From NCBI GenBank assembly GCA_963733745.1, contig CAVTFE010000002.1, positions 70,558-134,557 of the forward strand: a stretch of 64,000 bases of DNA, in the 5' to 3' direction. The translations under genes were made by a program, and so were the position numbers. The notes beneath the pieces were generated by a model. That model worked only from the letters and a program-made list of their open reading frames with translations. It was not told the DNA's origin and did not search any database. Each line of letters starts with the position of its first letter. The first letter of the stretch is position 1. Shown here one piece after another: positions 10,518-13,739 of the stretch. The DNA is from an uncultured bacterium. Lineage in GTDB: Bacteria; Chloroflexota; Ktedonobacteria; Ktedonobacterales; JADMIN01.

Positions 10518-10952
10518 ATGGAAACCAGACAGGACATGGAACAAGACGCCAGACAAGATACACGACCACAGGAACGCTCACTCGGCGAGTTGTTCAGTGA
10601 CCTGACACGCAACATGAGCACGCTGATCCGCCAGGAGACGCAGCTCGCCACAACCGAGATGACGCAGAAAGCCGCCCGCATCGGAAAAAGCTCCGGCGTG
10701 CTGGTCGGTGGCGGGCTTATTGCCTACGCCGGGTTCATCGCCCTGCTCTGGGCGATCGCGTACGGGCTGACCAACCTCTTCGGCTGGCCGATCTGGCTCG
10801 GCTTCCTCGTCGTGGCGATCATCGTGCTTGCGATTGGAGCCATCATGGCGTGGCGCGGCTACGACACGCTCAAGAAGACTGACCTCGTGCCACGTCAGAC
10901 AGTTGAGACCATCAAGGAGGATGCGCAATGGGCGAAAGAGCAGACCGCGTAG
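10518..10952 (+). CDS. Holin-X-like (phage holin family, superfamily III type) membrane protein
   Basis: SLGELFSDLTRNMSTLIRQETQLATTEMTQKA followed by two TM helices matches my memory of the actinobacterial Holin-X family (Phage_holin_3_6). Confidence 0.7.
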   Translation: METRQDMEQDARQDTRPQERSLGELFSDLTRNMSTLIRQETQLATTEMTQKAARIGKSSGVLVGGGLIAYAGFIALLWAIAYGLTNLFGWPIWLGFLVVAIIVLAIGAIMAWRGYDTLKKTDLVPRQTVETIKEDAQWAKEQTA

Positions 10953-11980
10953 GTCCTGAAGGCCATGAGACCCCCGGTGACGAGTTCGCGCAGGGACGTG
11001 GCTGGAACGCTGGTGACGAAGAAGATCCGACGATGCGTGACGAACCGGGCCTCGCTGGCCTGGAGGATGACATCAGCGATGACATCAGCGATGACATCGG
11101 CGTGGCGAACCGCGCCCACGACGGCGAGATACTCTACGAAGAGGCGGATGTCGTGGAGGCGCAGCCGGAGGCGCGCGACGACGCCACCGACGAGACGGAT
11201 GCGATCCGCGGCGACATCGAGGATACTCGGGCCAATATGAGCTCGACGATTGATGCCATCCAGGAGAAGTTGAGTCCGCAGCGACTGATGGATCAGGCAA
11301 AGGAAACAGTCGGCGGCGCCGTTCATGATGCAACAGTAGGGAGGGTGCAAAACATGGCGAGCAATATCGCCGATACAGCCAAAGACACCGGTTCGGGGCT
11401 GATGGACAGCATCCGGGAGAATCCGCTTCCGGCGGCGCTGATAGGCATCGGCGTGGGCTGGCTCTTCCTGAGCGCGCGGCGCAGAGCGGCGGAGCGTGAT
11501 CGCTGGCGTCCGCGCGACGAGTCGGGCTATTACGATCAGGGTTACGGCCGCTATGGGCGCTCTGCCAGCGGCTATCCGTATGACCGCTATGGCCAGTATG
11601 GGAGCAGTCAGTATGGCTCCTCTCAGCCGTCTCGTGAGGAGAACGGCAAGATGAGCCAGATGGCCGGCGCCGCCAAGGACAAGATGAGCGATGCCGGTGA
11701 CCGCGCACAGGAGATGACGGACACCGTCAAGGAACGCGCTGGCGACATGGCGGAGCAGGCGCAATGGCAGGCGCAGCGCGCGCGTGGCTGGCTGGCTGGC
11801 GCCTGGGATGAGAATCCACTTGTCGTCGCCGGAGCCGCGCTGGCGGCGGGAGCGCTGGTCGGCCTCTCGATTCCCTCAACGGACGCCGAGCGTCAGATGA
11901 TGGGCGAGGCCAGCGGCAATGTCTTGCAGAAGGCGGCAGACACCGCGCAGGAAGCGACTCCTGACGCCAGTAAGCAATAG
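10928..11980 (+). CDS. DUF3618-like protein with a C-terminal TM helix
   Basis: AAGGAGGA sits 7 nt before the ATG at 10928 (25-nt overlap with the upstream gene). DAIRGDIEDTRANMSSTIDAIQEKLSPQRLMDQAKETV resembles the DUF3618 core. Confidence 0.7.
   Translation: MGERADRVGPEGHETPGDEFAQGRGWNAGDEEDPTMRDEPGLAGLEDDISDDISDDIGVANRAHDGEILYEEADVVEAQPEARDDATDETDAIRGDIEDTRANMSSTIDAIQEKLSPQRLMDQAKETVGGAVHDATVGRVQNMASNIADTAKDTGSGLMDSIRENPLPAALIGIGVGWLFLSARRRAAERDRWRPRDESGYYDQGYGRYGRSASGYPYDRYGQYGSSQYGSSQPSREENGKMSQMAGAAKDKMSDAGDRAQEMTDTVKERAGDMAEQAQWQAQRARGWLAGAWDENPLVVAGAALAAGALVGLSIPSTDAERQMMGEASGNVLQKAADTAQEATPDASKQ
11066..11101 (+). repeat. In-frame 12-bp tandem repeat (GATGACATCAGC x2, then GATGACATCGGC) encoding DDISDDISDDIG
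   Basis: Read directly. Confidence 0.95.
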
Positions 11981-12587
11981 CAGTTTGACACTCCGCACGG
12001 GCTAAAGCCCGGCGGATTCTCAGGCTACGCACAGCCCAACGGCTCACGTTAGCGCCCGAAGGTTCTGCCCGAACCCACTGGAGGTTGACTCCATCGCGGC
12101 GTGGCGTGGTGAGCTCAACGACCGCCGCTCAAGCGGAGCGCACCTCGTCCAAGACGGGTTACGGCTTTTACCCGTGGGAACGACATTCCACGGAACCCCG
12201 TAAGAGGAGGTGCTTGGTGCGGTGCAAAATGTCCTGCCCACCTCTTCTCGCACAACGGGGAGGACACGGCAATGGACGCAGGACGCATGGCGAACGCCCC
12301 CAACCGCCTCACCGCACGGGTTGAAATCCCGGCGGCTTGCGGCGGGCGAAAGCCCAATAAGGTCAAGCAATGGCAGAGTTACGTGGCAGCTACGCCGGCA
12401 CGACGCTGTGCCGGCGTAGGCTCTGAAGCAAACAGCGGGTCAGCGGACTCCACGGCTCATGGTGATTTGCAGTCACGTACCTCGTCCTCGCCCTTTCCAA
12501 AGGGAGGATGAGTGTACTGGATCATACGAAGCCCCATGGTGCGCCAGAAGAGTACTGTGTGCCGCAAGAATAGCAAGGAGCGCCGTG
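11981..12587. other. Highly structured non-coding gap (candidate ncRNA or long leader); class unknown
   Basis: About 600 bp with only short, mutually overlapping ORFs. Perfect 12-bp hairpin 12390-12401/12408-12419. GNRA hairpin GGGCgaaaGCCC at 12344-12355. 10-bp stem 12203-12212/12239-12248. Stems ACGGGT/ACCCGT and CCGTGG/CCACGG within 12154-12193. Confidence 0.3.
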
Positions 12588-13739
12588 ATGAGCAGCTCTC
12601 TCGAAGAAGGACAATACCAGACAGCCGCAGTCGCCGACTCGCCCTCGCGGTGGGAGCGCTGGAAGCAAACGCTTCTGGACTTCTGGAAGAAGTGTAGCAA
12701 CGACTGGATCTTCAACTTCTCTGGTCTGCTCGCCTATTCCCTGCTCATGGCCATCTTCCCGCTCTTCCTTGTGCTGCTCGCCATCGCCGGTCTCTCGCTC
12801 AACAACCTCTCGCCTGACGCGCTGGCCTCCCTCTCCAAGAGTCTCGCCTCGACGCTCCCTGGCGCCACCGGCGGCGCGATCGTGGATGCGGTGCTGACCA
12901 ACCTGCGTAAAAGCACTGGCTGGCTCTTCGTGCTTGGTCTGCTGCTCGCGCTCTTCACCGGCTCACGGCTCTTCATCACCATCGAGAGCGCCTTGAGTGT
13001 CATCTTCCGCCTGCGCCCGCGCGACGCGCTTCACCAGAACATCATGGCCTTGCTGATGGTGCTGCTCTTTGTTGTCCTCGTGCCGATCCTCTTCCTCGCC
13101 TCCTCTGCCTCCGACGCGATCGCACAGGCGCTCTTCTCTGGCGAAGTGAATAAAGCGCTGACGCGTGTGCTGGGCATCGTGAGCGCCTTCATTGTGGCGG
13201 TCGTCCTCTTTGGCGCGATCTACATCGTCGTCCCCAACCGCCCGGTCCACTGGAAAGAAGTCTGGAAGGGAACGCTGGTAGGCGCGGCGCTGCTGGTTCT
13301 CTATGAGCTACTCTTCCCGCTCTACCAAAACAACTTCCTCAAGCCGGGCAACTATGGCTCGGTGGCCGGATTCGCGATCGTGATCCTGGTCTTTTTCTAT
13401 TACTTCGCCTTCATCCTCTTGCTGGGAGCGGAAGTCAATTCCTGGGCTTCCGGACAGCGACAGACCGCCGCCGATCTCGCCTCGATCATCCATGAGGTGC
13501 AGGCGCACAACACCACGCGTGGCGCCGCCGGACCCACGGCCGGCTCGCCGACCGAAGACCTGCAGCATCACGAGGGCGCGGCGGCGATGGAGACCGATGA
13601 GCAGTCGATTGAGCACGAGCGTACGGATCATCACGACGACGCCCTCCCACCCAAATATGAGGAAGCCCAGGCGCCTGATCCCGTGGAGGCTGGGCAATCT
13701 GCTACAGCAAAGGCGCCTCCCCAGCACAGAACCTCGTGA
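12588..13739 (+). CDS. YihY/BrkB family membrane protein
   Basis: AAGGAG sits 7 nt before the ATG at 12588. NDWIFNFSGLLAYSLLMAIFPLFLVLLAIAG and six TM segments are typical of the YihY family. Confidence 0.85.
   Translation: MSSSLEEGQYQTAAVADSPSRWERWKQTLLDFWKKCSNDWIFNFSGLLAYSLLMAIFPLFLVLLAIAGLSLNNLSPDALASLSKSLASTLPGATGGAIVDAVLTNLRKSTGWLFVLGLLLALFTGSRLFITIESALSVIFRLRPRDALHQNIMALLMVLLFVVLVPILFLASSASDAIAQALFSGEVNKALTRVLGIVSAFIVAVVLFGAIYIVVPNRPVHWKEVWKGTLVGAALLVLYELLFPLYQNNFLKPGNYGSVAGFAIVILVFFYYFAFILLLGAEVNSWASGQRQTAADLASIIHEVQAHNTTRGAAGPTAGSPTEDLQHHEGAAAMETDEQSIEHERTDHHDDALPPKYEEAQAPDPVEAGQSATAKAPPQHRTS

Follow-up and report, generated by a model that had tools for sequence, protein, structure and literature searches.

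What occupies the 607 bp (positions 11981 to 12587) that separate a DUF3618 gene from yihY/BrkB in the DNA analyzed here, a 64-kb stretch referred to below as the window, which we assigned to the Ktedonobacterales (Chloroflexota) from its YihY protein? An earlier note on this locus had seen no credible open reading frame (ORF) and many strong local helices between the two genes, and had proposed a large structured RNA of unknown class. We found that the gap is not a single unit but consists of an inserted element together with a native spacer. The explanation that we consider very probable is that a native spacer of 230 bp recently received, on the minus strand, a 377-bp gene-less IS200/IS605 element, a MITE resembling the palindrome-associated transposable elements (PATEs), and that this element contains an omega-RNA gene. 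The coordinates of the features are collected in Table 1.

The view that the gap lacks a credible ORF was borne out, as the five ORFs of 69 to 108 amino acids found there gave no match in a Pfam search. The comparison with known RNA families that the earlier note had suggested also agreed with what had been concluded by eye. A cmscan search of Rfam 15 at the gathering score gave no match in the 64-kb window or in eight related loci, and the ykkC, ydaO, cobalamin, RNase P, tmRNA, OLE, GOLLD, ROOL, and HEARO families were all without a match at the gathering threshold. When the gap was searched in E-value mode (E values up to 10), only noise was returned (BM-sr0117 with 17.7 bits, the threshold being 112, and DUF3800-VI with 16.6 bits, the threshold being 35). 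A loose resemblance to the ykkC 3' element, which had also been remarked upon, received no support from cmscan.

Close relatives of the window, retrieved via protein look-ups, clarified the organization of the gap. In three of them (L005, L006, and L099), window position 11984 is joined seamlessly to position 12362, and the 377 bp from 11985 to 12361 are absent. The filled site of the window reads AGCAGT/TTGACACTCC...CCAATAAG/GTCAAG, whereas the empty site of the three relatives reads AGCAGT/GTCAAG, with slashes marking the joints. The flanks in L005 are 94 to 98.6% identical to the window; L099 is about 85% identical, and its remaining spacer is collinear. Comparison of the insertion junctions with the empty sites revealed no target duplication, and the joint is free of a scar. 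The segment from 11985 to 12361 is an insertion. In L006, a related element of 232 bp is present at another position, between the equivalents of 12471 and 12472, which is 110 bp beyond the 11984/12362 joint. Its first approximately 96 nucleotides are 77% identical to window positions 11985 to 12080, and both elements start with TTGACACTCC and directly precede GTCA. Strains that are 98.6 to 100% identical in the spacer differ in the presence of the insertion, so the element has moved recently.

These observations bear on the proposal that the entire gap of about 600 bp is one large structured RNA on the plus strand, or a cis-regulatory leader of yihY, of unknown class. Such an RNA would suit the lack of ORF family and Rfam matches, and the minimum free energy of the whole gap does lie below that of shuffled sequences, with z-scores of −4.5 (plus strand) and −2.5 (minus strand) from 20 shuffles each. 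With 200 shuffles, the values were −3.4 (plus) and −2.3 (minus) for 11985 to 12217, and −2.9 for the native spacer from 12362 to 12587. The gap thus folds moderately better than shuffled sequences, on both strands, and the thermodynamic z-scores do not favor the minus strand. However, 377 of the 607 bp are missing in relatives in which yihY and the spacer are otherwise collinear, the 377-bp unit recurs in unrelated contexts, and the conserved G.U pairs described below point to the minus strand. Conservation of the spacer in relatives, to which the earlier note had looked as a check, failed on two counts: near-identical strains lack the 377 bp, and a lineage with an 88% identical YihY (L001 and L007 to L010) has a spacer of 1.16 kb that is unrelated to that of the window. 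A large RNA spanning the gap is already contradicted by these data, and we consider it very improbable.

We regard it as practically negligible in probability that the region is the remnant of a protein-coding gene. Several ORFs of 69 to 108 amino acids do overlap the gap, and the lineage represented by L001 and L007 has a called ORF of 95 amino acids in its different spacer. Against this reading, the ORFs of the gap are without a Pfam match, tblastn and tblastx comparisons with the spacer genes of L001 found nothing beyond the DUF3618 C terminus, a blastx comparison with TnpB was not significant (best E value, 0.16), and the element together with the spacer accounts for the region. For the small ORF of the L001 spacer, membership in the Transgly_assoc family was considered and dropped, as Pfam gave no match.

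The native spacer of 230 bp consists of positions 11981 to 11984 and 12362 to 12587. The perfect 12-bp hairpin at 12390 to 12419, one of the strong helices singled out in the earlier note, is present and belongs to this spacer; in the uninterrupted spacer it begins 33 nucleotides past the DUF3618 stop codon. It is unchanged in L005 and L006. In L099, T-A has become G-C at one pair and C-G has become T-A at another, compensatory changes that keep the stem paired; the loop differs. In L098, another hairpin stands at its position. The hairpin is compatible with a terminator-like or stabilizing role; a consensus scan of 11700 to 12800 called no terminators, this hairpin included. A consensus scan of the same interval for sigma-70-like promoters found none on either strand. 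A second hairpin, in the yihY leader, is partly kept in L099, and the Shine-Dalgarno and start sequence of yihY is identical in L005, L006, and L099.

The inserted element proved to be one of many. As a query we used the 18-mer TGCGTAGCCTGAGAATCC, the reverse complement of 12013 to 12030, which is common to the elements of the window and L006, and it retrieved 87 metagenome stretches. About 80 of these share one architecture, in which a conserved block of approximately 95 nucleotides is followed by a variable but always paired hairpin, by GGAGTGTCAA, and then by unrelated sequence. At many of these loci, an ORF of 370 to 445 amino acids on the same strand stops at or shortly before the 18-mer. 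The three ORFs of this kind that were tested (L083, L024, and L022) have HTH_OrfB_IS605, OrfB_IS605, and Cas12f1-like_TNB domains and are TnpB proteins. One locus, L083, additionally has an IS200-type Y1 transposase (Y1_Tnp; E value, 7e-42) upstream of tnpB, and another, L024, has a left end, tnpB, and a right end inside 1.3 kb, as a tnpB-only element. Full-length homologs of the window element, 365 to 390 nucleotides long and 70 to 75% identical, were found in six stretches (L067, L049, L050, L027, L030, and L085), each with nTGAC on the left and GTCAA at the end. The left end of the window element (its positions 8 to 58) also matches the left ends of the 1.3-kb tnpB-only element of L024 and of MITEs of about 220 nucleotides (L016/L051), and the weakly conserved block of its middle segment is present in the short MITE type as well. 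The middle segment may possibly have a promoter role.

The top strand of the element is the minus strand of the window, opposite to the flanking genes. When read in this direction, the element is located 3' of TGAC and terminates in ..GAAT-CC(hairpin)GG-AGTG-TCAA. It displays one hairpin twice in direct orientation, as CCGCACGGGCTAAAGCCCGGCGG (11993 to 12015) and CCGCACGGGTTGAAATCCCGGCGG (12312 to 12335), with one unpaired base in each, and in the L006 element, a hairpin of its own occurs twice, also in direct orientation, as CCCCACGCCTGAAGGCGGGGG and CCCCATGCCTCAAGGCAGGGG. Both subterminal imperfect palindromes, IP_L and IP_R, covary in the family; the IP_R hairpin (helix 10 of the fold described below) differs in sequence between copies with its pairing retained. 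TGAC adjoins the left end of both the window element and the L006 element, and it does so at about 10 of some 15 left ends of the family; in some family copies, the left flank is not TGAC or the left guide tetranucleotide is mutated. Terminal inverted repeats were not found in the 377 bp, nor was any similarity to tnpA or tnpB. Neither tnpA nor tnpB is encoded in the 64-kb window, and a second copy of the gap in the window was not detected by blastn of the gap or by a covariance model search of the 64 kb.

The ends could be compared with those of IS608, for which the rules of end recognition are known (PMC3201880, PMC5934647). In IS608, cleavage occurs 3' of TTAC, which is external to the element and 19 nucleotides 5' of its left hairpin, and 3' of TCAA, which is internal to the element and about 10 nucleotides 3' of its right hairpin. 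Tetranucleotides located 5' of the hairpin feet, AAAG on the left (G_L) and GAAT on the right (G_R), recognize these sites; T-4 pairs with A+17 and T-3 with A+16 (PMC3201880, PMC5934647). The left guide CAAG and left cleavage site (C_L) TGAC of the window element obey the IS608 rule (PMC5934647), in that T-4 would pair with guide position 2, G-3 with position 1, and C-1 with position 4. The right guide GAAT and right cleavage site (C_R) TCAA also satisfy the scheme, such that three of three positions are Watson-Crick pairs at each end in this sequence-level test. By its sequence, the 377-bp element belongs to the IS200/IS605 family. We base this assignment on the lack of terminal inverted repeats and of a target duplication, the TGAC target, the hairpins on the same strand at both ends, the pairing between guides and cleavage sites, and the linkage of the right ends to tnpB and tnpA. 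It has both ends, no gene, and a length of 377 bp against at least 1.3 kb for the parent type (L024), as is expected of a PATE or an IS605-derived MITE.

Table 1. Features of the gap between the DUF3618 gene and yihY and of its surroundings (positions in the window)
Feature	Position	Strand	Basis or remark
DUF3618 gene	10928-11980		Pfam E value, 4e-13; stop codon 11978-11980
Flank adjoining right end, ACUGCUAUUGCUUACUGGCG	11965-11984	minus	Candidate guide by position only; antisense to DUF3618 stop
Gene-less IS200/IS605-family element (PATE/MITE-like), 377 bp	11985-12361	minus	Absent in L005/L006/L099; homologs elsewhere
Right cleavage site/transposon-encoded motif TCAA	11985-11988	minus	Last 4 nucleotides of the element, which ends ..GGAGTGTCAA
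Right subterminal imperfect palindrome IP_R, CCGCCGGGC-UUUA-GCCCG-U-GCGG	11993-12015	minus	One unpaired T in 3' arm
Right guide tetranucleotide G_R, GAAT	12016-12019	minus	5' of right hairpin foot; invariant in the family as GAGAATCC
Conserved structured domain, 233 nucleotides, 10 helices	11985-12217	minus	Right end and omega-RNA-like scaffold; covariance model, covariation
Middle segment, left end to structured domain	12218-12311	minus	Weakly conserved block ..CCGT.TTC...GTGCGAGAA..
Left subterminal imperfect palindrome IP_L, CCGCCGGG-AUUUCAA-CCCG-U-GCGG	12312-12335	minus	Contains GGGTTGAAATCCC; upper stem covaries
Left guide tetranucleotide G_L, CAAG	12336-12339	minus	Directly 5' of left hairpin foot
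Small left-end hairpin GGGC-UUUC-GCCC	12344-12355	minus	Conserved as GGGCTTT(C/A)GCCC in family left ends
Target/transposon-adjacent motif (TAM) TGAC (GTCA on plus)	12362-12365	minus	Flanking DNA 5' of left end, outside the element
Native-spacer hairpin, 12 perfect bp	12390-12401 with 12408-12419	plus	6-nucleotide loop; terminator-like, without U-tract
Second native-spacer hairpin, CCUCGUCCUCGCCCUUU-CC-AAAGGGAGGAUGAG	about 12478-12512	plus	yihY leader; minimum free energy and centroid folds
Shine-Dalgarno AAGGAG (12575-12580) and yihY start ATG (12588)	12575-12590	plus	Sequence, ORF, Pfam
yihY/BrkB gene	12588-13739		Pfam E value, 2e-39

Other kinds of small mobile repeat were also considered, namely a REP/REPIN repeat mobilized by a REP-associated Y1 transposase (RAYT), or a MITE belonging to some other IS family (e.g., IS110, IS91, or IS630). 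The element is short, gene-less, and rich in hairpins, as such repeats are, and RAYTs are likewise Y1/HUH enzymes. However, tnpB (IS605 OrfB) is flanked by the same ends, as is a tnpA of the IS200 type at one locus. The element's hairpins are directly oriented and 320 nucleotides apart, not inverted as in a REP doublet, the lack of terminal inverted repeats and target duplications does not fit an IS630/Tc1-type MITE, and the single copy in the 64-kb window is unlike typical REP families. An origin of this kind seems to us hardly credible, and the IS200/IS605 assignment is retained in what follows.

The right part of the element contains a conserved RNA-like fold. An alignment of 12 copies yielded an RNAalifold structure over the last approximately 230 nucleotides, with 61 pairs in 10 helices, and 24 of the 61 pairs show compensatory changes on both sides. 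In this structure, 96.6% of the alignment cells are able to pair, versus 37 to 50% when the partners are slid by 1 to 3 columns, and the 24 pairs with changes on both sides compare with 2 to 7 for slid partners; none of 500 shuffles reached any of the observed measures. The strand can be told from the pairing as well: 96.6% of the cells pair when the minus strand of the window is read and 84.3% when the plus strand is read, with 92 cells being G.U, and in the window copy 58 of the 61 pairs are formed on the minus strand versus 50 of 61 on the plus strand. Because of the conserved G.U pairs, we place the fold on the top strand of the element, which is the minus strand of the window. A covariance model (R1) built from 12 metagenome copies, with the window left out, matched the window from 12217 to 11985 on the minus strand over its full length (1 to 233) at 225.8 bits (E value, 1.7e-59), and this was the sole match in the 64 kb. 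The model also matched the tnpB-linked ends at 50 to 112 bits, mostly via the shared 3' core, and returned nothing in L005, L099, L001, or L098. The last 95 nucleotides or so are shared with the tnpB-carrying copies; for the upstream 135 nucleotides of the domain, no similar sequence could be detected in the sampled copies that carry tnpB.

The domain of 233 nucleotides is probably a TnpB omega-RNA scaffold, an assignment made from its position and structure and not from a known scaffold model. Three features suggest it. First, covariation across the gene-less copies extends to eight helices besides the pair of TnpA hairpins. Second, the fold stops exactly at the transposon boundary (..GTCAA). 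Third, autonomous copies have the fold at the 3' end of tnpB or beyond it.

With the fold in hand, the remaining helices of the earlier note can be sorted. The GNRA-capped GGGC-GAAA-GCCC hairpin at 12344 to 12355 is indeed there and, on the minus strand, is the conserved small hairpin of the left end. The CCGTGG/CCACGG stem within 12154 to 12193 is also real and is conserved in the family as helix 2, but the ACGGGT/ACCCGT stem that had been described with it is specific to the window copy. The 10-bp stem of 12203 to 12212 with 12239 to 12248 can be formed, albeit with one G.T pair, and it too is confined to the window copy. The T-loop-like GGGTTGAAATCCC (12318 to 12330) is present and forms the conserved top of the IP_L hairpin, although its likeness to a T-loop has no cmscan support. 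As for covariation, which had been recommended as a check with orthologous spacers, those spacers lack the element or are unrelated, and the covariation was found across paralogous or xenologous copies of the element. The central proposal was thus correct in that a covarying domain without an Rfam family exists, but this domain covers 233 of the 607 nucleotides, is on the opposite strand, and would belong to a known class of RNA.

It is possible, though in our view rather unlikely, that we are dealing with an inert fossil. In that case, the hairpins of the element would be sites for TnpA on single-stranded DNA, or would have no role, and no omega RNA would be made from a fold that was simply inherited. 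The lack of tnpB and tnpA in the 64-kb window, the lack of a promoter-like site in the 11700-to-12800 scan, and the degenerate left flanks or guide tetranucleotides of some family copies are in line with this. However, the window copy is full length against the covariance model (1 to 233, 226 bits) and has 58 of 61 pairs intact, both of its ends and both guide/cleavage pairs are intact, and it is polymorphic among nearly identical strains. Moreover, the eight helices beyond the TnpA hairpins covary, and recognition of the DNA by TnpA does not call for such covariation.

Under the explanation that we prefer, a recently inserted element with an omega-RNA gene, the following model may be drawn on the pattern of IS608. 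A TnpA protein (Y1/HUH) from another locus of the genome would bind, on single-stranded DNA, to the hairpins of both ends. The cleavage sites TGAC and TCAA would be paired with CAAG and GAAT, respectively, which stand just 5' of the hairpin feet, and neither excision nor insertion would leave a scar. The right 233 nucleotides would constitute an omega-RNA gene that is transcribed on the minus strand and reads through into the flank. TnpB guides are known to be the sequence that flanks the right end (PMC10055086), and the read-through RNA would here gain the guide ACUGCUAUUGCUUACU.., which matches the flank and is antisense to the DUF3618 stop. TnpB supplied in trans could then cut the emptied site, consisting of TGAC and the flank, which would favor copying of the element back into it, as has been shown for other IS605-family elements. 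We assume that a trans-acting TnpA/TnpB partner exists in this genome. Transcription of the element, its use by TnpB, its current mobility, and any polar effect that it may have on expression of the neighboring DUF3618 gene and yihY are likewise inferred.

More tentatively, the 365-to-390-nucleotide type found in the window and in soil metagenomes could be a free-standing guide-RNA gene that turned into a mobile element. Its 5' domain of 135 nucleotides might have evolved without an overlapping tnpB, and its RNA might parasitize, or cooperate with, a protein encoded at another locus, either TnpB or a TnpB-like regulator without nuclease activity. We rate this idea as doubtful. If true, the element would represent an omega-RNA scaffold that is naturally free of an ORF and that may constitute a novel scaffold variant.

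Several consequences follow for this locus and beyond. A false lead has been removed, in that yihY is not preceded by a new large RNA or riboswitch, and the region now has a correct annotation in a poorly studied phylum. Very recent activity of an IS605-type MITE is documented in a natural population of Ktedonobacterales, and one 230-bp spacer has received two different elements in sister strains. A further outcome is the definition of an omega-RNA/right-end family that has about 80 members in metagenomes, the TAM TGAC, and the IS608-like TCAA and GAAT motifs; it is absent from Rfam 15 and could be added. Gene-less copies reveal which parts of the scaffold are kept without an overlapping coding constraint, which may be of some use for the engineering of TnpB guide RNAs. 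The element is of a known kind and the RNA of a known class, and it is the sequence family itself that is new to Rfam.

The known system that is closest in its ends is IS608. The right cleavage site TCAA and right guide GAAT are identical in the two elements, the G_L/C_L pairing scheme is the same, and both have subterminal imperfect palindromes at both ends. The strand-specific layout of the cleavage sites, as read from the sequence, also appears to be shared, with the target outside the left end and the right site inside the right end. The elements differ in the target and left guide, which are TTAC and AAAG in IS608 and TGAC and CAAG in the window element. The distance from the left cleavage site to the hairpin foot is 26 nucleotides in the window element and 19 in IS608, and the distance from the end of the right site to the hairpin foot is 8 nucleotides versus about 10. 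The hairpin sequences are unrelated, and the window element, unlike IS608, is without tnpA and tnpB.

With respect to its RNA, the element resembles the TnpB omega RNA (reRNA) of elements of the IS605/IS1341 type, ISDra2 and ISGst among them. Like that RNA, the region is structured and noncoding, sits at the 3' end of tnpB or beyond it in the tnpB-carrying copies, and ends at the right transposon boundary, such that the adjoining flank would become the guide; a multihelix scaffold is likewise conserved. The putative window scaffold differs in standing without an overlapping tnpB reading frame and has no counterpart among the Rfam 15 models.

The closest likeness overall is to the PATEs, gene-less IS200/IS605 derivatives first described from Haloquadratum (PMC3119063). 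PATE-like ISGst elements occur in Geobacillus stearothermophilus (PMC10055086), and Meers et al. noted that PATE-like gene-less elements "often encode omega RNAs," for which the TnpB of other elements is needed in trans (PMC10055086). Like these, the window element is short and without a protein-coding gene, has subterminal hairpins at both ends, and is inserted next to a specific TAM without leaving a scar. It also appears to have kept the omega-RNA region, use of which would require TnpB encoded elsewhere. The window element differs from known PATEs in coming from a Ktedonobacterales (Chloroflexota) MAG and in belonging to another sequence family, with the TAM TGAC and the end GGAGTGTCAA; its 365-to-390-nucleotide type, furthermore, adds a covarying 5' extension of 135 nucleotides to the RNA fold.

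The spacer between the DUF3618 gene and yihY has received insertions more than once. The sister strain L006, whose site for the window element is empty, carries in the same native spacer a second, shorter gene-less element different from the one in the window (see the table). One short spacer hit by two independent insertions, in the window and in L006, suggests either that the element family is active or that insertion here is preferred. The L006 element has a matched hairpin pair of its own and, like the window element, has TGAC directly 5' of it on the minus strand. The window element is inserted in the first unit of a 16-nt tandem duplication. All relatives with the empty site have this duplication, and it runs uninterrupted in L005 (3262-3290) and L099 (669-700).

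Features of the spacer, its insertions and the element family
Feature	Location	Strand	Remarks
IS605-type gene-less element, 232 bp	L006 3153-3384 (window 12471/12472)	minus	different from window element; same 230-bp spacer
16-nt tandem duplication, AAGCAATAGCAGTGTC / AAGCAATGGCAGAGTT	window 11972-11984 + 12362-12380		spans DUF3618 stop codon
Predicted long-range helix AUACU/AGUGU	A2 (alignment of element copies) columns 156-160 with 381-385; window about 12203-12207 with 11988-11992
Right-end/omega-RNA fold, two copies	L016 1077-1254 + 2057-2238
Right-end/omega-RNA fold, two copies	L031 4717-4888 + 9017-9167
Right-end/omega-RNA fold, two copies	L085 1307-1541 + 2181-2373

In the lineage of L001 (2286-3447) and L007-L009 (2644-3501), the spacer is 1.16 kb long and unrelated to that of the window despite 88% identical YihY proteins, and DUF3618 extends about 60 aa further at its C-terminus, which together indicate that the spacer was remodelled between close lineages. 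The 95-aa hydrophobic ORF called in that longer spacer had no Pfam match. In L098 (2576-4506), a relative at 84% identity, the DUF3618 gene has shrunk to a 94-aa ORF, and YihY is 501 aa long with a weak PQQ-repeat match at its C-terminus.

The predicted long-range helix would enclose the entire 230-nt fold and adjoin the cleavage site. Its sequence is nearly invariant, so that covariation speaks neither for nor against the pairing; the corresponding positions are mostly unpaired in the window copy. In some tnpB-carrying copies (right ends in L012, L061, L081, and L083), the ORF continues across the conserved RNA core and ends within the conserved 18-mer as TGC GTA GCC TGA (C-V-A-stop). The ORF stops earlier in L024 and L063, and the coding/RNA overlap is thus variable within the family. 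Finally, the paired fold copies lying within a few kilobases of each other on several metagenome contigs indicate that the family is multicopy in its hosts.
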